Below are positions 36,470 through 64,000 of a stretch of DNA of 64,000 nucleotides, one piece after another. Numbering within the stretch: the first letter of the stretch is position 1; each line of letters starts with the position of its first letter. The translations under genes and the position numbers were made by a program. The DNA is from Cyanophora paradoxa CCMP329 (lineage: Eukaryota > Plantae > Glaucophyta): the NCBI GenBank assembly GCA_004431415.1, contig QPMI01000553.1, forward strand, positions 291,441 through 355,440. Direction: 5' to 3'. Below the pieces are notes generated by a model. It saw nothing but the letters and a program-made list of their open reading frames with translations. It had not been told where the DNA came from and ran no database searches.

Positions 36470-36945
36470 ATGAAGATTCTCGGCGTGGATGTGGGGGTCA
36501 TTAATTTCGCCTGGTGCCTCATCGAATTCGATCCGCAGACAAAGGAATCCCAGATTCTCGACTGGCAAAAGATCGCCCTCTTCCCGTCTGCGCGCTGCTG
36601 TGGCCGCCTTGTGGCGCGCCTGGTTGAGGTTACTCGCGGCCATAGCGCCTTCGGCCTTCCCGACCAGATCGCGATCGAGGGCCAGAGGACGGGAATTAAT
36701 CGCTGCATCGAGTGCACGCTCCACGCCCTCCTGTACGGGCGTGCGCGGATCGTGAGCCGCGCGCCATCAAGCATTTCTTCAAGATCTCGAACCCGAGCTA
36801 CAAGGAGCGCAAGCGCGGCGCCGTGGACAAGTGCCGCGACCTTGTACCCGCCGAGCTTGCCGATATCGCGGATCGCAACGGCAAGCTCGACGACCTCTGC
36901 GACGCCTACTTAATCGCCCTCTACGCCGCCCTCAATCCGTTGTGA
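36470..36945 (+). CDS. RuvC/A22-like Holliday junction resolvase; frameshift ~36760
   Basis: ILGVDVGVINFAW, IAIEGQ and KLDDLCDAYL catalytic motifs. Confidence 0.85.
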
Positions 36946-40321: not shown

Positions 40322-41695
40322 ATGGCTTCCGCGCTCATCTCCACCCCCTCGACCGCCCTGCACCACTCGCTGCGCAGCTCCGACGCGTCGGTGCACGTGC
40401 ACGAGACCTTCGACACGGCGATGCCGTTCGTGGACGAGGTGCTCGAGGTGAGCCCCGTGCAGTCGGGCGTCAGCTTCGGCCAGACCGTCGACATCGTCAT
40501 CCCGCACTCGGCGCCGATGTTCAACGACGCCTGGCTCAGGGTGACGCTGCCGGCGCTGACGAACGCCGACCACTTCTACATCCCGAAGGCCGGCTACGTG
40601 CTGCTCAAGAAGGTGAAGATCTTCGTGGGCACGCAGCTGATCCACGAGTACGACGGCCACCACGACGCCATCTACGGCGAGTTCGAGGACGACAAGTCCG
40701 TCACCCAGCACGTCGACATGGTGAACAACCTCTGGGCGCACCAGCCGCTGCGCCGCCGGGGCAAGGCCCCGAACACGCTGTACGTGCCGATCCGCATCGC
40801 GACGGGCTTCGGTCGAAAGTTCGCCGTGCCCCTCCACAAGATCCGCGGGACGGGCAACGAGATGAAGCTGCAGATCACCTACGCCTCGCAGAAGGAGGTG
40901 ACGGCCTCCTTCGTGGACGGCGGCCTGCACACGAACACCGGCCTGACGAGCAGCGTCAGCCTGGACACCAAGCTCATCCTGCGCTACGTGCACATCGACT
41001 CGCGCGAGCTGGCGCTGCACCCGAACTCGTTCACGTGGGCAGGCAAGTACGTGCAGCACTACAACGTGCAGTTCGAATCGGGCAAGGCCATCCGCCTGCC
41101 CTTCACCGGAATCTGCTACGAGCTGATCGTGGTGGTGCGCGACAAGCCGCACACCGACAACGGCGAGCACTTCTGGCGCTTCCGCCCCCTGGACAAGATC
41201 GAGCTGAAGTGCGACAACATCAAGGTGGTCGACAGCTCGAACCACGACGCGCACTTCTTGCGCACGGCCATCGCGCACAAGGAGCACACGCACGCCCCCG
41301 CCCGCAAGCACCTCGAGCTGCTGCGGGGCGTGACCTCGATGGACGGGACGGCAGCGGCCGACGTGGCCGACGCGCTGCACTCGCACCCGTGGTCGGGCAA
41401 CGACACGGCCCCCACGACCCTTGCGACCCACGACGCCCACAGCAGCGACATCCAGCCCCGCAACGTGGGCCAGTTCGGCACGGAGTTCATCTACTCGCTC
41501 CCCTTCGGCACCGACGTGGCCGACAACACCAAGATGTTCGGCGGCCTCGACATGGGCGCCTTCAAGACCATCGAGCTCACGCTCTGGACGCTCAAGACCT
41601 ACGCGGCGGACGCCAAGCCCGTGGCCGACATCTACTGCCGCTACTACAACGAGATCACCTTCACCAACGGCGGCGCCTACCGCCGCTTCCATTAG
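40322..41695 (+). CDS. Double jelly-roll major capsid protein (NCLDV-like)
   Basis: SFGQTVDIVIP....DAWLRVTLP, LLKKVKIFVG.QLI, LYVPI, IYSLPFG and YNEITFTNG resemble NCLDV MCP motifs; very strong codon bias. Confidence 0.85.
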   Translation: MASALISTPSTALHHSLRSSDASVHVHETFDTAMPFVDEVLEVSPVQSGVSFGQTVDIVIPHSAPMFNDAWLRVTLPALTNADHFYIPKAGYVLLKKVKIFVGTQLIHEYDGHHDAIYGEFEDDKSVTQHVDMVNNLWAHQPLRRRGKAPNTLYVPIRIATGFGRKFAVPLHKIRGTGNEMKLQITYASQKEVTASFVDGGLHTNTGLTSSVSLDTKLILRYVHIDSRELALHPNSFTWAGKYVQHYNVQFESGKAIRLPFTGICYELIVVVRDKPHTDNGEHFWRFRPLDKIELKCDNIKVVDSSNHDAHFLRTAIAHKEHTHAPARKHLELLRGVTSMDGTAAADVADALHSHPWSGNDTAPTTLATHDAHSSDIQPRNVGQFGTEFIYSLPFGTDVADNTKMFGGLDMGAFKTIELTLWTLKTYAADAKPVADIYCRYYNEITFTNGGAYRRFH

Positions 41696-43375: not shown

Positions 43376-44179
43376 ATGGACCCCTCTTCCATGCTGGGCT
43401 TCGACGCGCTGGCCGTGGACGGGCCGAACCCGGTGGGGATCCCGCAGCCTCGGAAGAAGGGCCGCCCCGCGAAGGAAGGCAAGGAAAAGGGCGAGAAGGC
43501 GCCGAAGGCAGACAAGACGTCGCTGCCGGGCGACGGGCCCACGGTGCCGCCGACGGCGCCGAGCAAGGGCGCGAGCTTCAGCGTGCAGGAGCACATCGAA
43601 ATGACGAAAAAGAAGGAGCAGAGCGTGAAAAAGGCGCTGGGGATCGACCTGCAGGAAAAGCCACGTGACGAGGCGCAGACGGACGTGGACGAGAAGAAGC
43701 AGGTTCTGCGTCAGATCGCGCAGTACAGGCGCTCGTTCGGGGGCGAGCTAACGTCCACGAAAAAGCTGAGCCTCGCGACGCCGCTGGACGAGCTGAAGGA
43801 AGAGTACGAGGAAATTCAGCGCGAGCTGAGCACGCGGGGTTCGCTGGAGGCGGCGCGCCTCTTTCTGATCGCGGGCATGCACTCGCTGGAGCACCTTAAC
43901 AAAGCGTACGATCCGATCGGCCTGAAGCTCGACGGGCTCGGGCAGGCGACGCTCGCCTCGATGGACCAAGTGCAGCCGATTTTAGAGGAGCTGGTGATTA
44001 AGTACTCGCGCTACGTGACCCTGGGGCCCGAGGCGCGCCTGGGGATGGCCCTTGTGCAGACGGTGCTGGCGGTGCACGCGGCCAACGCAAACCCGGAGAT
44101 GATGAAAGAGGTGACGGAGGCGGCGGCCTCGACGGCGGCGGAGCCCAAGGCGGTGGGCGGCAAGTTCAACGGCCTTTGA
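43376..44179 (+). CDS. Hypothetical protein
   Basis: 267-aa ORF with the upstream motif. Confidence 0.7.
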   Translation: MDPSSMLGFDALAVDGPNPVGIPQPRKKGRPAKEGKEKGEKAPKADKTSLPGDGPTVPPTAPSKGASFSVQEHIEMTKKKEQSVKKALGIDLQEKPRDEAQTDVDEKKQVLRQIAQYRRSFGGELTSTKKLSLATPLDELKEEYEEIQRELSTRGSLEAARLFLIAGMHSLEHLNKAYDPIGLKLDGLGQATLASMDQVQPILEELVIKYSRYVTLGPEARLGMALVQTVLAVHAANANPEMMKEVTEAAASTAAEPKAVGGKFNGL

Positions 44180-44233: not shown

Positions 44234-45016
44234 CTACTGCATGGGGGTGGTGTACATAGACTCGGGGTTTAGGTAGGGCTCGAAATCGGCCTCGTTGTCG
44301 TAGGGCTTGAAGGCCAGCTCGGGCGTGCGGCCGGCGAAGCGAAAGGCGCCGACCTTGCACTGCTGCACGGCGAGGAAGGACCACTTGAGGCCGAACTTGC
44401 CCTCGGGGATGGCGTAGGCGGTGTCGATTTTAACGAGGGCCGCCACCAGGTCTCCGGTGCCGATGGTGGCGCGCTCGGTGATGAGGTAGTTGGACATGTC
44501 GACGACTGGGATCGTCTTGCGCTTGCCCGCCATCGTCTGCGTGCGGATGCGCATGTTGAGGTACTTGTAGAAGGCCTGGCCCGACTCCTTGTCGACCTTG
44601 ATGCGCACGCTGGGCGTCTGCAGCACCGAGATCTGATCCTTGGAGAGGGCGCGCCCGGGCGAGACCTTGAGCTTGGCCTGGTTCTGCTGCACGAACTCGC
44701 AGAATTTCGCGTCCAGGGCCTCCAGCAGCTTGAGGAACTCGTCCGCGGCTGGGTTCGTCTGGCCGTCGACGGCGCTGAGATCGGTGAGGTCCAGCGTGTA
44801 AAATCCGCCGTTTTCTTCCATGACGAAGGCCTTCTTCTCGTCGCTCCACGCCTTGCCTTGCTCTGTGTTGATGCAGGGGTTGATCGTGACCATGGGCGGC
44901 GCGTACATCATGAGGCCCTGCAGGCCGTCGTACTTGGCCTTGATGCGGCCGTTGGCATCGATTTCGAAGGCGAGCTTGGCGGGGTCGATCTCGGTGGCGT
45001 TGCGGACGGTGGCCAT
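44234..45016 (-). CDS. Probable viral single-stranded DNA-binding protein (OB fold, NCLDV/T7-like)
   Basis: PPM, FLKLLEALDAKF and GKFGLKW pattern; size and context fit. Confidence 0.6.
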   Translation of the reverse strand: MATVRNATEIDPAKLAFEIDANGRIKAKYDGLQGLMMYAPPMVTINPCINTEQGKAWSDEKKAFVMEENGGFYTLDLTDLSAVDGQTNPAADEFLKLLEALDAKFCEFVQQNQAKLKVSPGRALSKDQISVLQTPSVRIKVDKESGQAFYKYLNMRIRTQTMAGKRKTIPVVDMSNYLITERATIGTGDLVAALVKIDTAYAIPEGKFGLKWSFLAVQQCKVGAFRFAGRTPELAFKPYDNEADFEPYLNPESMYTTPMQ

Positions 45017-45517: not shown

Positions 45518-46917
45518 GAGGGGGGGGGAAGTGACGCGGACGCGAATACGTCATAGTCGAATACGTCATAGTCCAAAACCTGGACTCGGGACTCGGCCCA
45601 GGCCCCGCCGGTAAAAAAATAAGCTCGGACTTGGCGCCATTTTCTGAACCCCGGCTAGCTGCTTAATCCAGTACCATGGAGCCCGCCATCTCCCAGCTAG
45701 TCTCCCAGGGCGCCAAGCTCGACAAGGCCCTCAGTATCTACCTTCAGCTGATCGAGCTGGCCTGGCCGGAGCCAATGATAGCTCAGGCCTGCAAATCGCT
45801 CCACGTGGCGTTCGATGCGCCGTTCTCAGGTGACCCGACTCAGATGACATCCTGGACCAAGGAGGAGATAAAAGCCGACTTCGAGGCGCTTTTCTCATTT
45901 ATGAGCAAGAAGTATGCCGAAATCGAAGCAGCTAAAGCCGCAGCCGCAGCCGAAGACGAAGGCGCAGAAGGCACCGAAGCCTCAGCCGAAGGCCCTGCCG
46001 GCGACGAAGGCACCGAAGTTCAAGGCGCTGGGCCCTCTGCAGAAGGCCAAGGCCAAGGCCGACCTGCTTCCGCGTAGGCCCAAGGACATAGCCAAGGAGG
46101 CCAGCAGCCACAGGCCCGACTGGCCGGCGCCGGCGCCCTACCGCTACCTCAAGCTGGACAAGCGCAACGATACCGGCTTCACCAGGAGGAGGTGGCCTGA
46201 GCCCCTTCGGTGGCTGAAGCCAAGGGAGATCAAGTCTGGAGGCGGTATCGAGCTAGCGCTAGCGCTAGGAGGAGGCGGTGCAGACTTAGAGGAGCAGGCG
46301 CTGCTAGATACCATCAACTTGGGCAGGGTAGAGCTGAGCTAGCTAGCTGGTATCGATATCTAGCTAGCCTAGCGCTAGCCCAGTGCTTAATTAATTAACT
46401 GAAAGGTTGCGGAGGTTGCGGACGCGTCACAAATACGTCATAGTCGAATACGTCATAGTCCAAAACCTGGACTCGGGACTCGGCCCGGGCCCTGCCGGTA
46501 AAAAAAAGAGACTTGAACAAAAACACCGTACCCCGGTATTTAACTTGAAATCATCATGACATCATGTTCAAGTTGCTATGACATTAACTACATTCAAAAG
46601 CAATGAATGCAATAGTATTATTATTATACTAAGTATTATTATTATTATAATAGGGGTACAGTATTATTATTTGAAACTTGGCGAGAGTCTGGGCCCAGGT
46701 CCCAAGTCCAGGTTTTGGACTATGACGTATTCGACTATGACGTATTCGGACGCGTCACTTCTCCCCCTACTCAGCTGAACCAGCGGGGGTAGAGATGATG
46801 GCGCCAAGTCCGAGTCTATTTTTTTACCGGCAGGGCCCGGGCCGAGTCCCGAGTCCAGGTTTTGGACTATGACGTATTCGACTATGACGTATTCGCGTCC
46901 GCGTCACTTCTCCCCCT
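45518..46917. repeat. Four ~80-120-bp repeats (+,+,-,-) around an AT-rich core; candidate replication origin
   Basis: Each copy holds two (G)AATACGTCATAGTC units plus CAAAACCTGGACT. Copies at ~45518-45640 (+), 46433-46515 (+), 46692-46768 (-) and 46798-46917 (-). Confidence 0.9.
45676..46077 (+). CDS. Hypothetical protein
   Basis: ORF with the upstream TTTTCTGA motif. Confidence 0.5.
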   Translation: MEPAISQLVSQGAKLDKALSIYLQLIELAWPEPMIAQACKSLHVAFDAPFSGDPTQMTSWTKEEIKADFEALFSFMSKKYAEIEAAKAAAAAEDEGAEGTEASAEGPAGDEGTEVQGAGPSAEGQGQGRPASA

Positions 46918-49662: not shown

Positions 49663-49812
49663 TCAGTGGTGGAGGTGGCGGAAGGTCTCGGCGTGGGCCT
49701 CCGTCGCCGCCACCACCTCCTCCGCCGCGTCGATCTCCGCCCGCGAGGCCTCCAGCGTCGCCCGCCGCGCGTAGGACTGCGGGACGGCCACGCGCCGGTA
49801 GGGCTGGGCGAG
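49663..49812 (-). pseudogene. 3' part of a GC-rich gene interrupted by the PLV
   Basis: Removing 49813-63068 restores the frame ...GLAKTLA|QPYRRVAVPQ...FRHLHH*. Confidence 0.85.
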
Positions 49813-51168
49813 ACACATATTGAAAAACGAATTTAAATCCCTCGTTCATCTCGATCGCTTCGCGATCTCGATTCACTCTGGATTTAAATTCGTTTTTCAA
49901 TATGTGTTAATTTAATACTAAAATACATATTTTTCGATTAATTTCTTAAACTTTTTATGCAAACTTTGTATAAAATAATGCAAATTTTGTATTAAAAATG
50001 AAAATGCGTTTACCAAAATGCATATTTTCGATTAAACTTCGATAGATTCAATTGATCTTATATCGATTGATTATGTACTTTGTTGTTTACATACAAATCT
50101 GCGATAGATTAACATTAAACTGCTTAAAGATCGATATAATTGCGATTAAATTGCATAAATTCGCATAAACTCGATATATCTCTCATGTATTGAAGTAGAC
50201 CACCGCCCATTCTGTATCGAAAAACGCAAAAAGTGTCACAGAGTTGCATTGTGTCCAATTGAACAATCGATGAGATTGCTGATGTACATTTTTGCACCGA
50301 AAAAGTGTCACAGAGTTGCATTATCTCCCATTAAACAATCGATTAGATTGCGGGATTTTCTATTGGAATATATCGGAACTGCATTATGTCCAATTAAACA
50401 ATCGATGAGATTGCGGATTTATATTTTAGATCGAAAAAGTGTCACAGAGTTGCATGGTCTCCAATTGAACAATCGATTAGATTGCATATGTTCTATAAAA
50501 CAGAATAATTGAATTCAAGTGTGACAGGTAGTATTCAAATGATATTCAGTAATAGATATATTTGTTTTTGAGAAAGTCAGTAAGAGGGGTAGAATGTCTG
50601 TGACGCCTGTGACGGCTGTGACGCCTGTTTTCAGAAGTCTGTCATTTTTGAAAATTTTAAAAAGTTTGAAAGTAGGTGTCACAGGCGTCACAGGCGTCAC
50701 ACTCAATTAAATTAGGTGTCACAGCGAAATTGCAGACCATTTCCAGTAAGACAACTTCGCATTTTCAAAAAGGTTGATTAATGGATAGTGTTTTGGAGGT
50801 GTCAGAGGTGTCACAAGACGGATTGCAGTAAGACAAGAATATATTCTCGAAAATCTCAGTAAGAGAAAGAGATTCCATTTTTAATTGGGTGTGACGCCTG
50901 TGACGGCTGTGACGGCTGTTTTCAGAAGTCTGTCATTTTTGAAAATTTTAAAAAGTTTGAAAGTAGGCGTCACAGGCGTCACAGGCGTCACAGTCAATTA
51001 AATAGGTGTCACACCCGATTATCTGACCATTTTCAGTAAGACCATCTGAAATTCTGAATTTCTCAGTGTCAACTAACTCGGAAATCGCAATACTCTATGT
51101 TTCTCCGATTTCTCCAACCCTGAAAACACACCTGTTATTCTCTCATCTATCTCATGAGATACTCTCGT
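49813..51168 (+). repeat. Left terminal inverted repeat (1356 bp)
   Basis: Reverse complement of 61708-63062; the only difference noticed is one homopolymer indel (~50565). Confidence 0.95.
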
Positions 51169-51215
51169 TTCGCCAAAAATTGACAAACGATTTCCCATCA
51201 TGCTGTAAAGGAAAC

Positions 51216-51470
51216 ATGCCGATTAACCAGCCGTATTACAATTACTATGGGCATTACTTCTTGATTGTCAAGAAACTCACAGAGCATTATGAGATCTTCC
51301 AAGAGATGGGATTGCGAATTACAAGGAGATCAACCCTTTGTAGATTCTTGAAAAAGAATGGTGCTAAATGGGATAAGACAATTCGCCAATGGTATACAGA
51401 AGATCCCAAGAGTCCCCTTCTTGATATTTTCGAAACATTGAATCTGGATCAGTTTAATCATTTCCAATAG
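51216..51470 (+). CDS. Small protein with a DUF5710-like motif
   Basis: LKKNGAKWDKTIRQWY. Confidence 0.5.
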   Translation: MPINQPYYNYYGHYFLIVKKLTEHYEIFQEMGLRITRRSTLCRFLKKNGAKWDKTIRQWYTEDPKSPLLDIFETLNLDQFNHFQ

Positions 51471-52386
51471 CCAAGAACTCTAACTGGAATGAGTTGTCAA
51501 TTCCATTCATATCAACAAGATCACCATAATAATCTCGAAACTCAACTGTTAACTCTCTAATCACAAGGTTTCGATCGGTTATTTTTATGTATTCACTGTG
51601 CTCTCCACTGTGATAAACATACTGTCCAATATCTTTACTTAATTGCAATCTGAGAATCGCCCCTTGATTCTGTGGTTGAGATTGTGGGACAATATTGTGG
51701 TTTGTAGCAAATGGGGAGAGTTCTTTAATGTGCATGTATAAATACTGTTCTGCATTCATGTCTGTCATCTTGGATGCTTCTAACTTGTAGTTTAAGCGAG
51801 ATGCCTCGAATTCATATCCTGTGAATGTAATTCCCCATTGTGGATGGTTTGGGGTGATTGGTACTCCTGCAAAATAGAGGAAATTCTCGGGGGCATATAA
51901 AGACCTTGCAGACTCTGGGAAATCGTAGGTTTGCTCAATTGAAGCGACCCACTCCACAGAACTAACCCCAAGAAGTTTACCCAATCTCTGTGTAGATGCT
52001 ACCAATTCGAATTGAACATTACTGTAAAACTCTAACTTGTAGGAGGTCGGATTATAGTAGACTTTGAATGCATATGTGAGATTGTTGCTCCCAGTAAAGG
52101 TGAAATTCAGACCATAATTATATGGACTGGTGACCCCGAAATGCCCTTGATTAATATAACCACTTGGGAGAAGGAAGACCTGTTTGGTTTCAGAGATGCC
52201 TTGGTAGAAGAATCTGACAAGAAGGTGGTCTGTTCCAATGGAATTATAGATGCTGTTGGGGATCTCTGCATACAAAACTCGACATTCTCTTGGTTTGGTC
52301 ACTGGGGTTGTGAGTGAAACTTTGTAGGAGTTTTCTATTTGTCCATCTGATCGGTCTCTGCTATCTATATTGACCAGCCGAATCAT
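51454..52386 (-). CDS. Minor capsid (penton) protein
   Basis: N-terminal IDSRDR, AEIPNS.YN, YLYMHIKEL and LTVEFRDYYG.LVDMNG.D.SF.LE are typical of PLV/NCLDV minor capsid proteins. Confidence 0.85.
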   Translation of the reverse strand: MIRLVNIDSRDRSDGQIENSYKVSLTTPVTKPRECRVLYAEIPNSIYNSIGTDHLLVRFFYQGISETKQVFLLPSGYINQGHFGVTSPYNYGLNFTFTGSNNLTYAFKVYYNPTSYKLEFYSNVQFELVASTQRLGKLLGVSSVEWVASIEQTYDFPESARSLYAPENFLYFAGVPITPNHPQWGITFTGYEFEASRLNYKLEASKMTDMNAEQYLYMHIKELSPFATNHNIVPQSQPQNQGAILRLQLSKDIGQYVYHSGEHSEYIKITDRNLVIRELTVEFRDYYGDLVDMNGIDNSFQLEFLAIGND

Positions 52387-52414
52387 TTTAATATATGTTT
52401 ATAGATAAAAGAAG

Positions 52415-53424
52415 ATGCCTGTGGATTACATCGAAGTGAGCTCTTTCAATACAATTTCGGGAGATGGACCTACTTCGAGTTTTATTGCTCGCCTCCCAGC
52501 ACCTATGAATTTGTGAGAGCAGTAAGACTGGTTTCAGCAGAATTCTATAACAGCATTCCCATGGTGAGTGGTGAAACCAAACCAGGAGATGTGACAATAG
52601 ATAATGCAATCTACCTTTATTGGTCTGAATATTATTCTGGTGCAGGAAGCACTGGTATTCCAACTGATCGACCTGCTGCCGATTATGAGCAATGGAAACA
52701 CATTGTGATAAGTCGCAGCACACCCATTCAAAACCACCAACAACTGGTGAATGTAATTAACTCCAAACTTGCATTGAGAGAGCCACCAGTAGCAATTCGC
52801 TGTAAATGGGATGATACACTGAAACGAGTTATATTCCATTCAACCATACCGTTTTACCTGGCTTTCTCAACCGCAATTAACCCAAACCAGGCGCAGATTC
52901 AGAGGTTTTTGAGTTCTGCTCGACTGCTTGGTCTTGATCCTGGGAGATATGGTAACACCCCAATCCAATCACAAGTTTATAATACTCTGACTGATGGTAT
53001 CTTTACTGGGTCGATGGTGCATGGTATCATATCTTCATTTGAACCTGAAAAGACCAGGGATAGTGTTCTGTTTGTGAGAGTAAAGGAGTTGGGTGATCTG
53101 GTTCAATGTGGTGATGGTCTCCTCACTGGATATTTCCACAAAATCGTTGTTCCAGATAAAGATTATGGTGAGCATGTCGTTTATAATTCGACAGAAGCCC
53201 ATCCGATTTATAAATACTATAACAAGAATCTGGGACTTTCCACATTTTCGGTTGATATTGTGAATGCAGTTAATGAACCAATTGATTTCGAGGGTCAACC
53301 TGTCCACCTCACCTTCGAAATTCGATATGGTGATGAACCTGCTGGTGATCCTGTGTATGAATATTTCAAGAGGAGGATGGCGGAAACCCATCCATCTTAT
53401 CCTGTAATTGCGAGTTTTGCGTAA
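52415..53424 (+). CDS. Second penton-like protein; frameshift ~52508
   Basis: VRLVSAEF.NS, LFVRVKEL and FSVDIVN....IDFEG..VHLTFEI parallel the first penton; the ATG at 52415 is in the adjacent frame. Confidence 0.7.
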
Positions 53425-53478
53425 AATCAAGGATCATTGGTGAATTTTTTATGTTGCAGTATAATAAAAGAGATAATC

Positions 53479-54849
53479 ATGGATATTACTTCGACCCTCC
53501 AACGTCTTTCTCTGAAAGAAGCTCTAACAACCCCGGAAGAAGCCAAGGCGTTCTTCCTGGACAACTCTCTCATGCTTGGTCTTGAATCCAAGTCGAAGCC
53601 AGTTCTTGTTGTTGTGAACCCAAGCAACACTTTCGAGAATAATGCTGGAAATCGCATTTCTTTCAAGCTCCCTCGCTACAATTTCTGTGGAAAACTCGAA
53701 CTTGCGTTTGACCTTCCAGCTGTCACTTTTGCTGGTGATACCGACCTTGTTCGCAATGGATACGTTCGCCCAGTTGGTGCTCTTGTCTCTCGACTTGAAA
53801 TCACCTATGGATCTTACACTTTCCATGTGCCTTCTGATTTCCTTGCTCATTTCCCTCTTATCTATTACAGTGAGGATCAACTCGCCAAGAAGAAGCGTTC
53901 AATGGGTATGGTTCATGGTATCCCTGCCCATGGAACCAACCGACTTGGTGGGTCATTTTTCACTGAAATCCCAGTCCCATGGCTAAACCATTACCTACCT
54001 CTTGGTGCTCTCTCAGGAGAAATGGTGGTAACTGTCTGGTTCAAGGATGCTGGAAAGGGTTATGTTGAGACTTCTTATGGTGGTCGTGCTCTTCCAGTTG
54101 TTGGTGGAACAGCTGCTGATAAGACAGAGGATGATGGACTTGGTGCTACTGCTAATGCTACTCTTGCCCATGTTGGTCAACAGATCACCACTTTCACCAT
54201 CTCTGGAACAACCCCCGAAATTAAAGTCACTTCTCCTCGTCTTTACATGCATGCTATTAATGTTTCTGATGAACTGTTTGCTACTGTCATTGAGAAGGTG
54301 AAGACCACTGGTATGGCTATTCCTGCTCTGGATATTGGTTTTGTTGACAGTGTCAATTTTGCTGCAAAAGGCAATGCTCAACCAAATCGTATTAACCTGT
54401 CACAGATCTCTGGTCTTGTCTATGGTCTTCTTGTTTCAGTTCGTGATGCCGCAGGTATTGATGGTTTCAATGGTTCCCACAGTGTCCTAAAAACGCATGC
54501 TAACTCAAAAGACATTACTTTCACTGTTGAAATTAATGGTCAACGTCTCTATGCTACTGAGCCCATCCCTCTCCTCAAAGGTGCCGAATTAATTGCGGAT
54601 GCCTTCAAGTGCTCGAATATGGACAAGGTTGCAGACAAATATGTCCTCAGTGGTCTACCATTCTGTGTTGATGGAGAGAAAGCGATTCGCAACATTGCCC
54701 AGTCTGGCTATGTTGATCTCACGAACTCCTCCTCCTCTTTCCTCACTCTATACATGCCTTCTGACCAGACAATCACAGTTAATGTTCGTGCTCTCATGCA
54801 CAGTTTCATTATTGTTGACAAAGATGGGCTCCGACGAATTAATCTGTAA
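53479..54849 (+). CDS. Double jelly-roll major capsid protein of the PLV
   Basis: ~456 aa; ISFKLPR....LEL.FDLP and EIPVPW; lies between the pentons and the ATPase; biased codons. Confidence 0.8.
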   Translation: MDITSTLQRLSLKEALTTPEEAKAFFLDNSLMLGLESKSKPVLVVVNPSNTFENNAGNRISFKLPRYNFCGKLELAFDLPAVTFAGDTDLVRNGYVRPVGALVSRLEITYGSYTFHVPSDFLAHFPLIYYSEDQLAKKKRSMGMVHGIPAHGTNRLGGSFFTEIPVPWLNHYLPLGALSGEMVVTVWFKDAGKGYVETSYGGRALPVVGGTAADKTEDDGLGATANATLAHVGQQITTFTISGTTPEIKVTSPRLYMHAINVSDELFATVIEKVKTTGMAIPALDIGFVDSVNFAAKGNAQPNRINLSQISGLVYGLLVSVRDAAGIDGFNGSHSVLKTHANSKDITFTVEINGQRLYATEPIPLLKGAELIADAFKCSNMDKVADKYVLSGLPFCVDGEKAIRNIAQSGYVDLTNSSSSFLTLYMPSDQTITVNVRALMHSFIIVDKDGLRRINL

Positions 54850-54911
54850 AACCATGATCAGTAACGTTTCGTTATTTTTATCTATCTTTAATAAGAAAGA
54901 TCTACAAAGCC

Positions 54912-55445
54912 ATGTCTGACGTTCCCGAATTTAATGCTGCTGAGATGATTAAACCCCCTTTTCGCGTATTAGCAATCGGAAAAAGCGCGACGGGCAAGTC
55001 AGAAGCCGTAAAATATTGGCTAAAACAACTTCACGATGCGAAAAAGTTAGATGTTGTTCTTGTTATAAGTGGGACATCATTCAATCATTTTTGGGATGAT
55101 GTCGCAACATTACAGCTCGGTAAATGGGATGCGCCTTACATCGCTAAACTTCTCGATGAAAGACAAGAGAAAATTGAGAAAGGAGAACCCGTTAATCAAT
55201 TATGTGTTGTTCTCGATGATCTTATAGACAATGAGATTGTAGACCTTACCCGTGATAAAATTATTGGATCTCTGTATTCGCGCGGCCGCCACTCGGCGAT
55301 TACAATTTTCTGCATAACTCAGAAACTGCGTAAGGTTTCTTCAACCATTCGCGTCAATTCGGATTATGCAATGTTCCTCAGTGCCGCCAATCGCAAAGAA
55401 CTGGAAGCCATTGAAGAAGAATACAATATCATGCGGGATAAAGGT
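54912..55445 (+). CDS. A32-like packaging ATPase, C-terminally truncated by the GC-rich insert
   Basis: GKSATGKS, VVLDDL and SRGRHSAI...TQ...IRVNSDY. Confidence 0.9.
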
Positions 55446-57074
55446 TGCGGAGCTCGAGCGCCCGCGCGACGGCCTCGCGCTGCTCCTGGTTGAGCGGGGC
55501 GAGGAGGGGGAGCATCTCCCGGACCAGGCGCTCCCCCCGCGTCGGCTCGACGGGCTCGGTCCGCGTGGCCGTGCCGTCCCCGACGGCGCGGCGGATCTCG
55601 GTCCGGGCCGCCTCGGACGCGGCGGCGTTGTAGAGGGCGTAGAGCGCCCCGCGCATGAGGCCCGCGCCCTCCAGCGCCCCCGGACGAGGAGCGCGAGGGC
55701 CATCCAGGCCGCCAAGGCGGTCGCGAGGAGGGGGCCCGGAGGGTCAGCGAGACCCGCGACGAGGCAGTGCAAGAGGGCGGCCGCGAGCACGGGAAGGTGC
55801 ATCGCTCGGGCTCGGACGCGACCGCGCGGGGCGCCGCTTCTTTTGAATGGTCGCGCGGGGGCGGGCGCCCGCCGCCTTTGGGAAGAGGTGGATGATGATC
55901 ATGGATCGACGCGCCCGGAGCGATGCGTAAATAGGTGCGCAAAGACGACGACGGGACGCGAGGTCGCATGACGCGCACCAAGGCCCCCCGCGACGGGGGC
56001 GCCTCGACGGCCGGCAAGACGGTCGCCAGGTGGAAGAAGAAAACGCGCAGCAGCAAGCGCCTGACAAAGGAGCAGCGGAAGAGCATGCCGGCGAGCGGCG
56101 GGATCAAAAAGCCGAAACGGTGGAGGCCCGAGGCGCCGCTTCTTCTCGCCCCGGCGGTGCGCGACCTCTTCCTCGGTCGGGCGCTCGACCGCGAGGAGCG
56201 CCGCGGCGGCCTCGGCGGTCGCCAACCCGAGGGACTTTGCCGGCAGGTCGGAGACGATGCGGTGCCGCGGGTTGGTCCTCTGGAGCTTGGTCTCCGCGCG
56301 CGTGATATACGACTCGAGGGCCGCGTACGCCCCCGGATCCCCGATTTTGAGAAACTTTGCCGCGTCTCTCAGTGCCCCTAAAATGGGCTGGACGAGGACG
56401 CGCGGCGCCGGCGTCTGTATCGTAGTTGATTTTGTAGAAAATGGATTTTGGACCCAACCTCCCGCCCGCCCGTGACGTGATCGAGGCCCGCGCGACGAGC
56501 CGCCTCCCGAACCATCGCCCGCACCGCCGCGCGTCGCCGGCACGCGGCCTGGAGGGCGACCGCCGCGACGCAGCGCACGAGGGTCGCCTCGTCGCAAGAG
56601 GAGATGCGGGGCAGGGTCGCATGGGTCCGAACCGCGACGATCGCTGGGCGGGGGTCGAGGCCGCGGTCGTCGCCGACCTCTTGCGCGCGACGGCGCCCGA
56701 GGAGCGGGGGCCCGCCCGGATCATCTTCTTCGGCGACGCGGGCTTCCCGCGGTACGCGTCCTCGTACCCCGACCGCATCGAGCCGTGGCTCCTCCAGGCG
56801 GCGGTGGACTTTGCGGCCGACCCGCGCCGCCGCCCCCTCTCCATCGTCTTCCACACCTTGAGCCTCCGGAAGGCGTCCTGGTTCGACGAGCTGCGCGTCG
56901 GGCTAGAGTTCAATGGCGTGCAGATCGTGCGACACAACTGCCTGTGATTTTTTTTCACTGTAAATAAAAGTCACTCTTCCGTCTTCTTTTTCTTTGCCTC
57001 TGTAAACAGCATGCGCCGAGCCTTGCCGCGATCGATGTCCGCAAAGGGGTTCACGGAGCCGAACACGACGTTGG
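55446..57074. other. GC-rich foreign insert inside the PLV
   Basis: Abrupt GC shift; AAAGGT at 55440-55445 and 57075-57080. Confidence 0.85.
55968..56381 (+). CDS. ORF beginning with a histone H3 N-terminal-tail-like sequence (no histone fold)
   Basis: MTRTK...STAGK...RKSMPASGGIKKPKRWRP versus H3 MARTK..STGGK..RKSAPATGGVKKPHRYRP. Confidence 0.65.
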   Translation: MTRTKAPRDGGASTAGKTVARWKKKTRSSKRLTKEQRKSMPASGGIKKPKRWRPEAPLLLAPAVRDLFLGRALDREERRGGLGGRQPEGLCRQVGDDAVPRVGPLELGLRARDIRLEGRVRPRIPDFEKLCRVSQCP

Positions 57075-57080
57075 AAAGGT

Positions 57081-57845
57081 AACACAAGCAATACTTCCGC
57101 TCTTGTAGTCAAGAGTGGAGGAGCCTACATTGGTGATGGAGCAATTGTGGTGGGGACTGTCACAGCAAATCAATTTAATGTGAATGGAACAAGTTCATTT
57201 ACAGGATTGATGACCTTCAATGGTGGTCTTTCAGGAAGTATTCAGTATGGAACTCTCACACTGTCAACAAGATTAACAACTCCTGAGAGTGACACAATTG
57301 CAGACACCAACTTTATTTACAAACGAAATGGAAGCGCAATTGTGACACTACAAAATATCCAAACAACACCATCAAACAGAGAGGCGATCGTATTTTCATC
57401 AGGAAGCTATCTAAAACGAAATGGTTGCCCCCGTTTTATGGCTTCTGTTATGGCTCCGAATGCAGCAGAAACAACAGTTTCAAAAGCAACCGGAACGAAT
57501 ATTCTATTTCCAGGAGTTCTTATCAACCATGGAAACAACTTCAATGGTTCAACATTAGGGAATTTTACCGCCCCTGTTGCAGGAAATTATTACTTCTGTT
57601 TCCAAGTGATTATCTCAACCACTACTGCATCTGAGATTGTTCTGAATCTTCGGAAAAATGGAGCAACATCAGAATATGAGGCAAGAGCAACTTTTGCTTC
57701 CTCAATGTCACGATTACCTATATCATATGAATGCATCATCAACCTTGCTGCAAATGATTGGATACGAATTTACAATAATTCCACTGCTGCAATCGTATAC
57801 ACCAATCGATCGCACTTTGGAGGAATGCTGATTAGCGCCACATAA
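57081..57845 (+). pseudogene. C1q-domain fibre, N-terminus missing
   Basis: SALVVKSGGAYIGDG begins directly after the insert; FTAPVAGNYYF C1q motif. Confidence 0.8.
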
Positions 57846-57867
57846 TATTGTTACTTTAAAGTAAAGA

Positions 57868-58888
57868 ATGTCTACACAGATTGCTGTTCCTGTTTTCTGT
57901 TATGCAGCCCAAAATTGCATCAACTCAACCACACAGTAACAGATGCAACCCTGGGTTTATTTGCACAGAATCCACAGGAGCGGATTCATTTTCTCAAAAT
58001 TCTGTGATCAGATGCAAAGAGATACGATGTGATCGCAATAATGGAAAGGTGAGAGCCACTGGTTTAATTGTGTCAAATAAGAACCAAGTCCAATCGGGAT
58101 CGATTGTATCAGATACAGCAATTTATGATGATGTGGGAGGGTTCATCACACCGAAAATTATTACTTTTGACAACACCATGAATAACTCTGCTCTTGTAGT
58201 AAGAAGTGGAGGAGCCTACATTGGAGATGGGGCAAGGGTTGATGGAACTCTTACAGCAAGTCAACTTGCTGTGACAGGGACAACCACTTTTACAGGAATG
58301 GTTACAGCAAATGGTGGAGTCTCAGTAGCAACCAATTCTCAACCCACCATTACTGCAACAACAAGATTAGTAACTCCTGAAATTGATACAGGAGGAAATG
58401 TTGATCTTGTGTTGAAGCGAAACAGCAATACAGTAGCAACACTTGAAGCCAATTCGTTAACAATTAATACAGGGTGTTATTTAAAGAACAGCTTCCAACC
58501 AAGGTTCTGCTTCCGATTGGGTTATAATCACACTGCAACTTCTTCGACCGCTCTCATTAATTGGGCAACCAATCTTGTTAATGTAACAGGATCCTTCACT
58601 GGATCATCAGGAAGATTTACAGCTCCTGTTGCTGGACATTATCGATTCTCAGTTTTTACCAACTCAACAACACAAAACCCAATTCAGCTTTTCTTCAAAT
58701 TGAATGATGCCGATCCTGGGGGCATTTCTCTTTCTGTTTCCAGCACAGGCACATTAATAGTCAGACCTCTTCAAATGTCCTGCATTCTCAATCTTGCAGC
58801 CAACGAATATGTAACTATTTGGACAACAAACCAGGGGACATATTCCTCTGCAACAACATTTTGTGGAGAGTTGATAAGTATTACATAA
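57868..58888 (+). CDS. C1q-domain fibre protein; two frameshifts in the first ~100 nt
   Basis: GRFTAPVAGHYRF...TFCGEL; the ATG at 57868 gives MSTQIAVPVFCYAA. Confidence 0.8.
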
Positions 58889-58909
58889 TTTTCTTTTGAT
58901 AGAGTAAGA

Positions 58910-59173
58910 ATGTCGAATATCTATCAAGTGGTTCTATCAGATACTGAAAAGTTGGGGATGGAATTTTGTGCTGCTTCTGTTCAGGATTGGATCGATAATG
59001 CTGCCCACAACAGGGCAAGAATTGCAATTGATGAGATTGTTCAGAAAGAAGTTCAATCTTGCATTGCAGTAGGAGTTCAAATACCAACCACAAAGGAAGC
59101 GATTGTGTTACAGGCATTCCAAAGGGGAACTGTTAAAAAGGCGATTGAATATAACAATTTCACAGAAGAGTAG
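58910..59173 (+). CDS. Small protein, possibly a fibre-associated chaperone
   Basis: QDWIDNAAHNRARIAIDEIV; directly follows the C1q fibres. Confidence 0.6.
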   Translation: MSNIYQVVLSDTEKLGMEFCAASVQDWIDNAAHNRARIAIDEIVQKEVQSCIAVGVQIPTTKEAIVLQAFQRGTVKKAIEYNNFTEE

Positions 59174-59211
59174 TGAACATTATTTTTCTTTCCTTCTTAG
59201 TAAAAGAAGCA

Positions 59212-60066
59212 ATGGGTGAATATAATCGAGTTCAACTTCCAATATATTCCCTTGGATCCCCTGCAATGCACTTTCGCCAGCATGAAGTTAATGATGAGGT
59301 TCGTGGTTTAGAATCCACAGAGAGACCCAATTCCAATGGTAACTCCTTTGATAAAAATTCGATTATTCGAGTTAAAGAGCTGAGAGCTGATAAGAATTCA
59401 GGTGTGGTTAAAACAACTCGACTTCTTGTCACCAATGCTAACTTTTTCCAGCCTACAAATGGAGGTCCTGATGCTTACAGTGTTGATCTGAAAGCCCTGG
59501 ATTTCGATAAGAATTCTGCTGCTGCTACAATTCGTTCAGGTGGAGCATTTATTGGTGGTGGCTGTCGAGTTTCAGGTCAACTTTCTTCATCAATTTCGTA
59601 TAATGATGTCCCAGATACTCTTGAACAGAATGTGGAGAACCCACAACGAATTCGGTTCTATACACCAGTTGCACAGCAACCTTTTCTGCATTTCTATGTT
59701 GCATCATCTGTCACTCTTGAAAATTCAGAATTGGTTTCCATTACAGGAACTGATCGAGTGAGAAGGAATATTCCTCTTCCCACAGCAATGCTCTCAATGT
59801 GCAGAGCAAATAATAACCAACAAGGTCACAATTACCTATTCTTTGTTCAAGCATCCAACCATTTTGGTCGGGGATATTGTGTTTATAACAATCTGACATT
59901 TACTTATGATTTGTTTGTCACTGAGGTTGGAGTTTACAATACTATGATTATGGGACTGAGAACAGATATAGCAGCTGTTTCAGCACTTCGTGGGGTAAAC
60001 ATTGCAGATATCTTCACAACAGGGTTTTACCAGGAACCAGATGTGATTGATAACCCAACCCCATAA
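59212..60066 (+). CDS. Fibre-family paralog (shared N-terminal domain)
   Basis: KELRADKNSGVVKTTRLLVTN...SGGAFIGGG. Confidence 0.75.
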   Translation: MGEYNRVQLPIYSLGSPAMHFRQHEVNDEVRGLESTERPNSNGNSFDKNSIIRVKELRADKNSGVVKTTRLLVTNANFFQPTNGGPDAYSVDLKALDFDKNSAAATIRSGGAFIGGGCRVSGQLSSSISYNDVPDTLEQNVENPQRIRFYTPVAQQPFLHFYVASSVTLENSELVSITGTDRVRRNIPLPTAMLSMCRANNNQQGHNYLFFVQASNHFGRGYCVYNNLTFTYDLFVTEVGVYNTMIMGLRTDIAAVSALRGVNIADIFTTGFYQEPDVIDNPTP

Positions 60067-60089
60067 ATTATATATCACTTTAATGTAAA

Positions 60090-60917
60090 ATGGCTGCCCC
60101 AGTAGAGCGAATTATTACACCCCAGCTATCATTAGCAGCACCTGCAAATCACGTTTTGCAGCATGCTACTTTTGATGATGTAGAAGGTCTCCAATCCACA
60201 GAAGTACAACCTACCATGAATACCTTTGGTTCCACCCATAAACTGAGATTGCAGGAACTCAGATGTGATAAAAATAATGGTATAGTTAAGACAACGAAAC
60301 TCCTTGTCACCAATGCAAACTTTTCTGCCCATTATGGAGACCCAGACAGTTATGGTGATCCTCTTTCTACTTATTCTTTTGAATCTCGGTCGGGAGCTAT
60401 TAACTGCAAAACGGGGGGAGCATATATTGGTGATGGTCTTCGGATTGGTGGAGCTGTGGGTGCGCCTCTTTTCGTAAATGATCAACCCAATCCCATTGAT
60501 CCCAACACCAGAATTCGCACCTATGTCCCCAGTATGAATGCACCATATATTATAAAGATCTTCCCAATTGTTGTGAATGAACAGACATCAGTAGTTGATT
60601 CTCTTGTTGAGATTGGTGACCACTACAAGGTGGTCGTGGATATTCCACCAGATGTTTATGCTGTCTGTCAAGTAGAGGGTGGAACCCCAAATATTGCAGT
60701 TGTAATCACTCCATATGACAATTTCGGGATTGCTTATCATGGAGTGAATTTCGGTCTTGAAGATTACCAGTTTTTGGTGAGAGCCACCAGATTTGGTATC
60801 TACAAATGCATTCTCTATGCTGAGAGAACCGATGCTATTGCAAGACAGAATACATATGCAGAATATTACGGCACAAATCGATACTTCCCCATTTTCGGGC
60901 AGGATACTGCTCCATAG
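60090..60917 (+). CDS. Fibre-family paralog (shared N-terminal domain)
   Basis: QELRCDKNNGIVKTTKLLVTN...TGGAYIGDG. Confidence 0.75.
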   Translation: MAAPVERIITPQLSLAAPANHVLQHATFDDVEGLQSTEVQPTMNTFGSTHKLRLQELRCDKNNGIVKTTKLLVTNANFSAHYGDPDSYGDPLSTYSFESRSGAINCKTGGAYIGDGLRIGGAVGAPLFVNDQPNPIDPNTRIRTYVPSMNAPYIIKIFPIVVNEQTSVVDSLVEIGDHYKVVVDIPPDVYAVCQVEGGTPNIAVVITPYDNFGIAYHGVNFGLEDYQFLVRATRFGIYKCILYAERTDAIARQNTYAEYYGTNRYFPIFGQDTAP

Positions 60918-60942
60918 AAATCTCAGGTATATATAGAGAGGA

Positions 60943-61215
60943 ATGGATGATAAAACAAAGAAATTCATAGAATCTGCAATGATGGTTCATGGTGATGCTA
61001 AATTCGATTACAGTGAGACAGTGTATAAGAAAGCACAAGAGAAGGTCTCTGTTAGATGCCTTAAATGCAACAAGATCCTCCAAACCTACCCATTTAATCA
61101 TGTAAGGGGAAGTGGATGCAGAGAGTGCAACAAGAAATCCTCTCATGCTTACAGAAAAAAGACTACATCAGGAATTGTGATAGATGATAAACCAGTGGTA
61201 CTGTACTTTGATTAG
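60943..61215 (+). CDS. DUF723-like Zn-ribbon DNA-binding protein
   Basis: FIESA..VHGD.KFDYS..VY.....KV...C..C.......NH..GSGC.EC. Confidence 0.7.
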   Translation: MDDKTKKFIESAMMVHGDAKFDYSETVYKKAQEKVSVRCLKCNKILQTYPFNHVRGSGCRECNKKSSHAYRKKTTSGIVIDDKPVVLYFD

Positions 61216-61401
61216 ATCTTTGAGAGAGAAATGAGAATCCTTCCCCATTTTCCCTTGGTGATTATGCATGTGTCAAAGCAGTTTGGACAGGTCTTGTGGT
61301 AGTGCAACAGAATGATATCCACCAACTCATAAGGTAGCACTCTTGCTAAGATGGTTCGCATTCTACCAATCGCGTTTTTAATTTTTCTAAATTATTCATA
61401 A

Positions 61402-61803
61402 ATGAATACTCATCGAGGCTTCCATGTGATGCTGGATTACAAATTCAGAACCCAATTAGCAGTAGGAGTGGAAGACTTGGAGACAACAACCAGGTGGTTA
61501 ATGCAGTTCTTGCAAACTATTATTCAAGAGCAAGGTATTCGAGTAGTTCACAAGCATTGCGAGATTTTCGATGGTGGTATTTCTCCTCCTGGTTTTGCAA
61601 TGGTTCTTCTGCTGGATGAGAGCCACTGCACTGCTCACTGTTACTCAAATGAAGGTATGTTGGCGATTGATATATTCAGTTGTGGATTAGAAGCAGAGAG
61701 AAAAACCACGAGAGTATCTCATGAGATAGATGAGAGAATAACAGGTGTGTTTTCAGGGTTGGAGAAATCGGAGAAACATAGAGTATTGCGATTTCCGAGT
61801 TAG
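61402..61803 (+). CDS. speD: S-adenosylmethionine decarboxylase proenzyme-like (prokaryotic class)
   Basis: G.HVMLD, LLDESHCTAHCY (E/S autocleavage site) and LAIDIFSCG. Confidence 0.85.
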   Translation: MNTHRGFHVMLDYKFRTQLAVGVEDLETTTRWLMQFLQTIIQEQGIRVVHKHCEIFDGGISPPGFAMVLLLDESHCTAHCYSNEGMLAIDIFSCGLEAERKTTRVSHEIDERITGVFSGLEKSEKHRVLRFPS

Positions 61804-63062
61804 TTGACACTGAGAAATTCAGAATTTCAGATGGTCTTACTGAAAATGGTCAGATAATCGGGTGTGACACCTATTTAATTGACTGTGACGCCTGTGACGC
61901 CTGTGACGCCTACTTTCAAACTTTTTAAAATTTTCAAAAATGACAGACTTCTGAAAACAGCCGTCACAGCCGTCACAGGCGTCACACCCAATTAAAAATG
62001 GAATCTCTTTCTCTTACTGAGATTTTCGAGAATATATTCTTGTCTTACTGCAATCCGTCTTGTGACACCTCTGACACCTCCAAAACACTATCCATTAATC
62101 AACCTTTTTGAAAATGCGAAGTTGTCTTACTGGAAATGGTCTGCAATTTCGCTGTGACACCTAATTTAATTGAGTGTGACGCCTGTGACGCCTGTGACAC
62201 CTACTTTCAAACTTTTTAAAATTTTCAAAAATGACAGACTTCTGAAAACAGGCGTCACAGCCGTCACAGGCGTCACAGACATTCTACCCCTCTTACTGAC
62301 TTTCTCAAAACAAATATATCTATTACTGAATATCATTTGAATACTACCTGTCACACTTGAATTCAATTATTCTGTTTTATAGAACATATGCAATCTAATC
62401 GATTGTTCAATTGGAGACCATGCAACTCTGTGACACTTTTTCGATCTAAAATATAAATCCGCAATCTCATCGATTGTTTAATTGGACATAATGCAGTTCC
62501 GATATATTCCAATAGAAAATCCCGCAATCTAATCGATTGTTTAATGGGAGATAATGCAACTCTGTGACACTTTTTCGGTGCAAAAATGTACATCAGCAAT
62601 CTCATCGATTGTTCAATTGGACACAATGCAACTCTGTGACACTTTTTGCGTTTTTCGATACAGAATGGGCGGTGGTCTACTTCAATACATGAGAGATATA
62701 TCGAGTTTATGCGAATTTATGCAATTTAATCGCAATTATATCGATCTTTAAGCAGTTTAATGTTAATCTATCGCAGATTTGTATGTAAACAACAAAGTAC
62801 ATAATCAATCGATATAAGATCAATTGAATCTATCGAAGTTTAATCGAAAATATGCATTTTGGTAAACGCATTTTCATTTTTAATACAAAATTTGCATTAT
62901 TTTATACAAAGTTTGCATAAAAAGTTTAAGAAATTAATCGAAAAATATGTATTTTAGTATTAAATTAACACATATTGAAAAACGAATTTAAATCCAGAGT
63001 GAATCGAGATCGCGAAGCGATCGAGATGAACGAGGGATTTAAATTCGTTTTTCAATATGTGT
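61708..63062 (-). repeat. Right terminal inverted repeat (1355 bp)
   Basis: Reverse complement of 49813-51168. Confidence 0.95.
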
Positions 63063-64000
63063 GGCGAGGGTCTTCGCCAGCCCCGCCGTCTCCGCCTCGA
63101 ACGCCCGCCAAGTCTCCGAGGCCTCCGCACCGGAGATCTGGCGGGCGCGGAATCCCGCCTCCAGCTCGGCGCGGAAGGCGAGGGTGCGCTGGAGGCGCTG
63201 GGCCCAGAGGGCCTGGCGCCGCTCCTCCGCCTCGCGCGCCTGGCGCGCCGCCAGCGCCTGCCGCTCGGCCTCCTGCTGGGCCCCGAAGCCCTGGATCGCG
63301 GAGAGGACGGCGCCGGGGCCGGGGACGGGCGCGGCGAAGGCGGCGGGGACGGGGCTGCGGTCGGCGAGGGAGAAGGGGACGGGGCTGGGGCCGGCGCTGC
63401 TGGAGGGGGCGGCCGAGGCCGAGCGCGCGCGCGAGCCCGAGGCCGAGCGCGAGCCCGAGCTGCCGTAGCCGCTGGGGCCGGCGCCGCCGTCCACGGGGCT
63501 GCTGCGGAAGCTGCCCGCGGGGGAGGCGCCCTCGCCCTGGCCCGAGGGTCAGGAGGGGGGCGGGGGAAAGGGGGGTACGGGGAGGGCGCGGGTGCGGGGC
63601 CGGACCTGGCGCGGCAGCATCTCGTCGATGCGCTGCTGGCCGGCGTGCTGCTGGGCGGCGGGGGCGAACGACGGGGGCGGGGGCGGGACGAAGCCGGGGG
63701 CCGAGTTGCGGGCGCGCTTGCCCTTGCCCCTGTTCGAGGCCGTGACGGGGAAGGGGCCGTTCTCCGGGTCCGCCGGCAGGGTGAAGCGGATGGCCTGCAG
63801 GGCCGGCTGCGTCGGGCCGAGGGAGAGCGGGGCCTTGGGGACGATGCCGCGGATGTAGGTCTCCCAGACGCCGCCGGCCTTGTAGGAGAAGAGGCGGCAC
63901 TTGGGGCCGAAGGCGGCGATGGTCTCGTCCAGCGCGCCGTTCTCGATGTCGGCGGCGAGGGCGGCGGAGGCGTCCGGGCCCTGCGCACGGCGGCGTCAGC
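63063..64000 (-). pseudogene. 5' part of the PLV-interrupted gene (continues beyond the window; probable frameshifts)
   Basis: ORF 63063-63494 joins in frame to 49663-49812. Further coding-like sequence (DIENGALDETIAAFGPKCRLFSYK) extends to the window edge. Confidence 0.65.

Follow-up and report, generated by a model that had tools for sequence, protein, structure and literature searches.

A Likely Defective Polinton-Like Virus Element Nested in an Endogenous Mriyavirus-Like Virus of Cyanophora paradoxa

Why does one integrated virus lie inside a gene of another, and does this position mean that the first depends on the second? The question is raised by a window of 64,000 nt from Cyanophora paradoxa CCMP329 (assembly GCA_004431415.1, contig QPMI01000553.1, positions 291,441-355,440), in which a Polinton-like virus (PLV) element of 13,250 bp, located at window positions 49813-63062, interrupts a helicase-like gene of an endogenous mriyavirus-like virus. 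In a preliminary description the element was presented as a provirophage-like satellite, mobilized or replicated by the surrounding virus. Here, a different answer is preferred: it is fairly likely that the element is a defective copy of an abundant PLV family, that it was probably inserted by an rve integrase of this family, and that the nesting probably arose by chance.

Boundaries and Insertion Site

The outline of the element given in the preliminary description was re-derived and held. Alignment of the terminal inverted repeats (TIRs) with each other gave 1,356 bp for the left copy (49813-51168) and 1,355 bp for the right copy (61708-63062). The two are identical except for one 1-nt indel, and the insertion is therefore taken to be recent. 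Comparison of both flanks placed the target site duplication (TSD) GGCGAG, on the forward strand, at 49807-49812 on the left and 63063-63068 on the right; paralogues of the interrupted gene have this site once, and the probability of such a match at both flanks by chance, computed from flank composition, is about 0.0009. All junctions, outer ones as well as those of the patch described below, are taken from the assembly sequence. The outermost 95 nt of each TIR form an imperfect hairpin with a perfect 28-bp stem, for which the folding energy is -32.9 kcal/mol (z = -11.2), and an equally stable structure was obtained in 0 of 200 shuffles. Repeats of about 63-72 nt at 50218-50485 and a repeat with 291-nt spacing at 50588-50992 are also present in the left TIR. 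The AT-rich parts of the element have a GC content of 39-40%, against 61% in the virus to the left and 79% in the right flank. TIRs, a TSD within the 5-6-bp range and a GC contrast, as known from PLVs, are thus all present. The designation of the element as AT-rich is nevertheless correct only for the parts with 39-40% GC and fails for a patch of 1,629 bp with 70% GC at 55447-57075.

Insertion took place at the 3' end of a gene of about 1,450 aa that resembles an SF3 helicase, approximately 49 codons before the stop and downstream of the helicase domain. On the reverse strand, the upstream part of the gene, comprising C-terminal exons, lies at 63069-64000 (97.7% identity to residues 1118-1250 of the paralogue P0003), while the final 49 codons and the stop lie at 49663-49812 (95.9% identity to residues 1402-1450 of the same protein). 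It had been claimed that the element splits an open reading frame (ORF) which is restored upon its removal. Continuity was borne out, in that the site is read straight through in 26 of 36 paralogues, four of which have the exact junction peptide of this copy, and the other 10 gave no match to the search pattern. The target, however, is a spliced gene rather than a single ORF. A 69-nt intron with an in-frame stop and a branch-point motif is predicted at 63605-63537, where the gene models P0002 and P0005 make the same skip, and the end of a second predicted intron falls at 63981.

The assignment of this gene to a mriyavirus-like virus, also part of the preliminary description, was strengthened by its paralogues. 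The right flank used as a query returned 35 paralogous proteins, all from one proteome, with identities of 50-100% and lengths of up to 1,519 aa, and a 36th was added from a separate search. Walker A was found in all 12 long paralogues examined, and B- and C-like motifs were discerned by eye in most. Profile support consists of sub-threshold AAA_22 matches in 9 of the 35, and NCBIfam, PHROG and PDB searches gave no useful match. Thirteen of the 36 helicase models are situated 7-14 gene numbers from a model of the major capsid protein (MCP) cluster of the mriyavirus-like virus on the same contig, for which the chance is about 5% each; it should be noted that two models in the MCP list used here are mostly or wholly the neighbouring gene. 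When any listed gene of this virus is considered, the number rises to 19 of 36, the lists being partial. On tig00000057 the order is that of the window: helicase, the homologue of the gene at 48832, that of the gene at 47274, ssb, the homologue of the gene at 43021, MCP and HUH. A host gene or a retrotransposon ORF had been suspected from the introns, the 79% GC and the many copies. Both were rejected because the paralogues have helicase motifs and keep their gene order with mriyavirus genes; no retroelement domains were detected in them.

Gene Content and the GC-Rich Patch

Twelve reading frames, of which ten are whole ORFs and two are cut genes, fill 92% of the AT-rich unique DNA of the element, and the largest non-coding gap there is 186 bp. 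The presence of MCP, ATPase and fibre genes, as first described, was confirmed. The MCP of 456 aa (53479-54849, forward strand, as are all genes of the element below unless stated) is 60% identical over its full length to P0001, a published protein confirmed as an MCP by HHpred, through which the double-jelly-roll assignment is made. AlphaFold models of the element protein were uninformative (pLDDT 32-33), and a comparison with PDB sequences returned nothing useful. An A32-type packaging ATPase (54912-55446; Pox_A32, E = 1e-8) is cut after about 178 codons. The fibre family is represented by four genes, two of them with a C1q domain: one at 57076-57845 (C1q, E = 1e-12), which is devoid of its first ~90 codons; one of 328 aa at 57902-58888 with a C-terminal C1q domain, recognized by profile and paralogue alignment; and two paralogues recognized by alignment, of 284 aa with the common N-terminal domain (59212-60066) and of 275 aa (60090-60917).

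A putative minor capsid (penton) protein of 287 aa (52561-53424) has ESM Atlas look-alikes at 0.97, with a recognition value of 2244 that is below the tool's 2300 mark; these belong to unnamed clusters of Nucleocytoviricota, Uroviricota and Preplasmiviricota, and profile searches gave no match. A second penton candidate of 310 aa (51454-52386, reverse strand) is weakly assigned through a 46-aa match to the former (E = 0.027), with no match among Pfam, PHROG and NCBIfam profiles. An 84-aa ORF (51216-51470) shows a weak DUF5710 match (E = 0.0016, below the cut-off), and an 87-aa ORF (58910-59173) has only a sub-threshold Pfam match. A 90-aa zinc-finger, endonuclease-like fragment is located at 60943-61215 (PHROG 681, E = 7e-11; PHROG 559, E = 4e-8), followed by an S-adenosylmethionine decarboxylase (61402-61803; PF02675, E = 6e-11), whose 3' end lies inside the right TIR. 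Pfam and PHROG searches of the element revealed no gene for a polymerase, helicase, integrase or protease, and no virophage-type cysteine protease among its ORFs. The earlier statement that the first three are not recognizable is consequently retained. As PLVs usually, though not universally, have replication and integrase genes of their own, this makes an intact PLV less likely but does not speak against descent from one.

The absence of these genes acquires a different meaning once the patch at 55447-57075, delimited by the GC profile and by its cut neighbours, is considered. On its left side the ATPase ends at position 172 of the 242 positions of the Pox_A32 profile (covering 3-172), and on its right side the fibre gene aligns to its paralogue at 57902 from residue 91 of the latter, with 39% identity. 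At least 160 codons have been lost, at least ~70 from the ATPase and ~90 from the fibre gene, and a cut ATPase would leave this copy without the ability to package its genome. The native content of the element is 11.6 kb, whereas typical elements measure 15-30 kb (PMC10120064, in the part available). The lack of integrase and replication genes coincides with this lesion, so that they may have been lost at the patch; the lesion probably took both the integrase and the replication module. A natural fusion of ATPase and fibre protein, suggested by the halves being in frame, is disfavoured, as each half is without a conserved part.

The patch itself, a foreign stretch bordered on both sides by the 6-mer AAAGGT, is a patchwork of short frames and has no significant match to the rest of the window. 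Both of its annotated ORFs form one-member clusters in the protein collection, so that the patch does not look multi-copy. A 168-aa ORF occupies 56441-56947, and a search of the ESM Atlas with a patch ORF yielded only leads below 0.9. At 55968-56130 a start that resembles the tail of histone H3 by motif is fused to unrelated sequence; the frame has no Pfam match.

Relatives of the Element in Cyanophora paradoxa

In a search of 1.84 billion proteins the element MCP had two relatives, P0001 of C. paradoxa (60%) and P0090 (36%). P0001 corresponds to gene_47449, a confirmed MCP with an HHpred match of 98.5% to an iridovirus MCP in Table S2 of PMC10120064, in which it is one of six C. paradoxa MCPs of two types; the HHpred matches published there for this family are MCPs of nucleocytoplasmic large DNA viruses (NCLDV). 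A still closer relative in the same table is gene_64235, with about four fifths of the residues identical by eye. The family is abundant: Table S4 of that study records 366 MCP hits for C. paradoxa in clusters of 272 and 94, and the values 99.9 and 7.32 in this row, available without its headings, are taken here as assembly Mb and per cent. Table S6 of PMC12220804 covers 156 glaucophyte elements, with A32 in 139, rve in 85, lipase in 89, AdoMet_dc in 66, pPolB in 49, D5_N in 40 and PIF1 in 34; tyrosine recombinase and virophage MCP or protease are recorded there in none, and PLV MCP profiles matched in only 2 of the 156 in the part of that study concerned. On the grounds of the published MCP family, the A32 ATPase, and the TIRs with TSD, the element is confirmed as a PLV-type integrated virus in the broad sense, with Aquintoviricetes and the NCLDV-related PLV groups as candidate placements.

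Compared with the endogenous PLVs of C. paradoxa in the available parts of PMC10120064 and PMC12220804, the element agrees in host, MCP family, A32 and AdoMet decarboxylase. It also shares a terminus with one of them. The protein gene_58741 of Table S2 (PMC10120064) starts with 29 residues identical to the end of the element TIR read outwards, after which its sequence is that of an MCP of the other PLV type. The same terminus is accordingly taken to be inserted in a target, a PLV, that is not a mriyavirus. Unlike many of these PLVs, the element is without rve, polymerase or helicase, and lipase; its ATPase is cut, and a GC-rich patch is present. It also differs in being located in a mriyavirus-like virus, the passages of the two accounts containing no discussion of termini or insertion sites. 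Scans of viral contigs with the element MCP, the ATPase, the MCP alignment, the TIR end and the fibre alignment, as well as scans of metagenome contigs in which the two alignments served as queries, confirmed nothing.

Origin of the Nested Arrangement

A defective copy is preferred because the patch truncates both adjoining genes and the native content is short of the typical range, and nesting is attributed to chance because it is expected at the copy numbers concerned. The calculation assumed 94-366 PLV copies and 30-45 mriyavirus copies, each of the latter 30-40 kb long and together making up 0.9-1.8% of the genome; it gives 0.85-6.6 expected insertions into mriyavirus copies and a probability of 0.57-0.999 for at least one. 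The rve integrase of the family, encoded by the element itself until the lesion arose or supplied in trans by an intact sibling, would have made the insertion, with a 6-bp duplication, into a mriyavirus copy that was already integrated. rve typically yields duplications of 6 bp according to a passage of PMC12220804, and integrases are given as absent from mriyaviruses in a passage of bioRxiv 10.64898/2026.06.19.733378. Besides at least ~70 codons of the ATPase and ~90 of the fibre gene, the lesion would probably have cost the element its integrase and its replication module. Redundant viral repeats may tolerate such insertions, by which nested copies would persist, and intact siblings probably prime their replication from the terminal hairpins. 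Several points weigh against this explanation. Table S6 (PMC12220804) pools both MCP families and records no rve in 71 of the 156 elements; since the 85 with rve and the 66 with AdoMet_dc together number fewer than 156, the table does not force rve into the subfamily of the element. The second insertion site is one predicted protein compared by eye, and the loss of the module at the patch is a reconstruction from this copy. Moreover, the two AAAGGT copies that border the patch resemble a target duplication, in which case the deletion would predate the arrival of the patch. The ranges of copy number and length in the chance estimate are our own choice, and the fibre family common to both viruses is a sign of past contact. 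The preliminary description had itself named random insertion and autonomous full-length copies as observations that would tell against a satellite. This is partly borne out, by the site outside mriyaviruses and by rve and pPolB in many elements, but rve is not tied to this subfamily.

A satellite or virophage-like parasite of a nuclear mriyavirus-like virus, integrating into the DNA of its helper during co-infection, appears unlikely. Such an element would use the late transcription factors of the helper, or its HUH endonuclease and SF3 helicase acting on the hairpins. In AAV-type elements, HUH and SF3 proteins act on terminal hairpins, and the strong hairpins found here would suit this mechanism. 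The insertion in a replication gene of the supposed helper also fits, as does the fibre family: the fibre genes of the element have a homologue in the mriyavirus, at 22735-23580 (~30% identity, pairwise E = 1e-8 to 1e-11), and an alignment of four sequences has 26 invariant columns and an N-terminal domain common to both viruses, which suggests from sequence comparison that genes were exchanged between them. Furthermore, several PLVs depend on giant viruses, and the reduced group VC40 is without detectable replication genes, as stated in parts of bioRxiv 10.64898/2026.06.19.733378. An MCP model of the mriyavirus occurs together with a PLV MCP of the other type (PMC10120064, in part) on contig tig00020936, possibly another nested or clustered case. 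That satellites of this family swapped a fibre gene with the mriyavirus and integrate preferentially in viral DNA is doubtful to a similar extent. The gene loss coincides with the lesion, many elements of this genome have rve, and the same terminus lies in another PLV. Those helicase paralogues in which the site is covered, 26 of 36, are empty there. No DNA motif is common to the two viruses: they have a single 14-mer in common, words of 16 nt or longer are not shared, and 7-residue pieces of the TIR end do not recur in the other fetched mriyavirus proteins. Mriyaviruses have no integrase and no DNA or RNA polymerase to lend, according to parts of bioRxiv 10.64898/2026.06.19.733378 and PMC11253617. 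For each PLV family there are 94-272 MCP hits, compared with ~34 MCP models for the mriyavirus, and similar palindromes occur in elements with their own rve and replication genes (bioRxiv 10.64898/2026.07.28.741278, in part). That both known sites are viral was not accepted as an argument for targeting, since each was found through viral genes and says nothing on insertion preference. The proposed mobilization or replication by the mriyavirus-like virus is therefore not supported.

The remaining explanations concern the patch and the assembly. If the patch were an assembly chimera, the real element would be full length and autonomous. The patchwork of short frames with two singleton ORFs, the single-base indels typical of long-read assemblies (the split mriyavirus ATPase, the one TIR indel) and the near-identical repeats, which invite mis-joins, all point this way; yet the recurrence of one 6-mer at the two junctions points to a biological join, the AT-rich genes flanking the patch are otherwise open, and GC-rich nested inserts are reported as common in protist PLVs in parts of PMC12220804 and bioRxiv 10.64898/2026.07.28.741278. 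We therefore judge a chimera improbable. Less probable again is a naturally non-autonomous, deleted subtype that resembles miniature inverted-repeat transposable elements (MITEs), in which the lesion came first and the element then spread to several sites, amplified in trans by intact PLV siblings. Near-identical TIRs and a recent insertion are compatible with it, defective copies that retain TIRs and TSDs have been reported (bioRxiv 10.64898/2026.07.28.741278, in part), and rve is unrecorded in 71 elements of Table S6 (PMC12220804); against it, the patch ORFs are singletons even though the GC-rich ORFs of the window are annotated in the proteome. That the whole arrangement is a mis-assembly of two repeats is very hard to accept. 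Both partners are multi-copy and their junctions come from the assembly, but a mis-join would produce neither a 6-bp duplication that abuts both TIR ends exactly nor colinear halves of one gene, which here are 96-98% identical to P0003.

Comparison with Known Systems

Virus-in-virus nesting has a counterpart in the virophages and PLVs of Halocafeteria seosinensis (bioRxiv 10.64898/2026.07.28.741278, in the parts available). There too, palindromes occur at the termini beside the TSD, linked with rve and replication genes other than pPolB, and decayed copies keep their TIRs and TSDs like the present element. The targets in Halocafeteria are other PLVs, virophages and transposons, whereas a mriyavirus is the target here, and the palindrome shown is 52 nt compared with 95 nt. 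Gezel-14T, PgVV and the Tetraselmis PLVs, which have a virophage life style, share with the element a PLV capsid module with fibres and integrated algal relatives. Their helpers, however, are large giant viruses and their dependence was established by experiment, while the element is known from its sequence. Phaeocystis also holds endogenous viruses of mriyavirus type (NDDV, yaravirus-like), as described in parts of 10.1101/2022.07.28.501842 and PMC12480563. The literature search, which left subscription papers mostly outside, turned up neither a PLV located within a mriyavirus nor any mriyavirus from Cyanophora.

Most likely, the locus merely adds a further integrated virus, nested and decaying, to a genome of which ~7% is made up of such elements, and it cautions that a missing integrase in one copy is no evidence of helper dependence. 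If the satellite explanation were true, virophage-like parasitism would extend to small nuclear viruses without polymerases of their own, and the element would be the first parasite of a small relative of Nucleocytoviricota. In either case, a culturable alga with hundreds of PLVs and ~30-36 mriyavirus-like copies is a useful system, in which it can be tested what helps PLVs to replicate and how mriyaviruses, for which no integrase is known, enter host genomes. The mriyavirus-like virus itself may deserve more attention than the element nested in it.

The Mriyavirus-Like Virus and Other Features of the Window

The gene set of this virus extends over 18918-49615, with an uncertain left end at 16-19 kb; the virus measures at least about 35 kb and runs off the window. 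It encodes an MCP (40322-41695; Capsid_N, E = 7e-8), VLTF3 (33782-34612; E = 1e-24), an A32-like ATPase in two frames (35363-36774; E = 0.001 on one of them) and a RuvC-like protein near 36470-36700 (Ydc2/RuvC, E = 2e-4 and 0.026). Profile searches identified DUF5767 at 43376-44179 and the fibre/C1q gene at 22735-23580; an HNH gene is also present. The ORF at 32692-33549 is HUH-like by eye, with motif II (HAH between hydrophobic residues) and motif III (YxxK), and that at 44234-45016 is ssb-like by motif and general likeness; neither had a profile match, and both names are putative. VLTF2 and PDDEXK were not among the scanned ORFs of the window, short or broken frames being outside the scan and the virus exceeding the window; no mriyavirus DNA polymerase was found in the part within it, and no integrase was seen.

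The MCP used as a query returned 15 clusters with 34 members, all from the one C. paradoxa proteome, to which two proteins of the window correspond exactly, and one weak MCP match in the PDB (E = 0.16). About 30-36 near-identical integrated copies are estimated for C. paradoxa. No close relatives were returned outside this proteome, and scans of viral contigs with the HUH-like protein and with the MCP alignment of this virus confirmed nothing. In common with Mriyaviricetes, as described in part of PMC11253617, the virus has an NCLDV-like MCP, A32 ATPase, VLTF3, a RuvC-like protein and a minor-capsid-like C1q/TNF gene; the putative HUH-like and ssb-like proteins and the long protein with helicase motifs, a candidate SF3 helicase, would be further points of agreement. 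It differs from that account in its glaucophyte host, the ~30-36 near-identical endogenous copies and the predicted spliceosomal introns of the helicase-like gene, and VLTF2 and PDDEXK, which belong to the comparison, were not found in its scanned ORFs.

Some further structures were observed. At 45522-46916, within the mriyavirus, lies an AT-rich core with inverted repeats of 135 nt (93%), which have inner copies at 46432-46506 and 46692-46748; the structure may be an origin or an invertible segment. Arrays of a 7-nt unit (ACTTGGG), found in both orientations at 16246-18902 near the left end of the virus, border short segments and may mark a virus terminus or a telomere-like route of integration. 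Apparent frameshifts in the ATPase gene at 35363-36774 and in a long coiled-coil gene (23618-29100) reflect either decay or long-read indels. Two paralogous ORFs lie at 19272-20788; that of 270 aa corresponds to a cluster of 15 members, many on contigs without other listed mriyavirus genes, and may also belong to another repeat. The region 800-6000 is host-like and intron-rich with repeated modules of ~1.1 kb, and a tandem array with a unit of 151-157 nt is located at 14291-15000.

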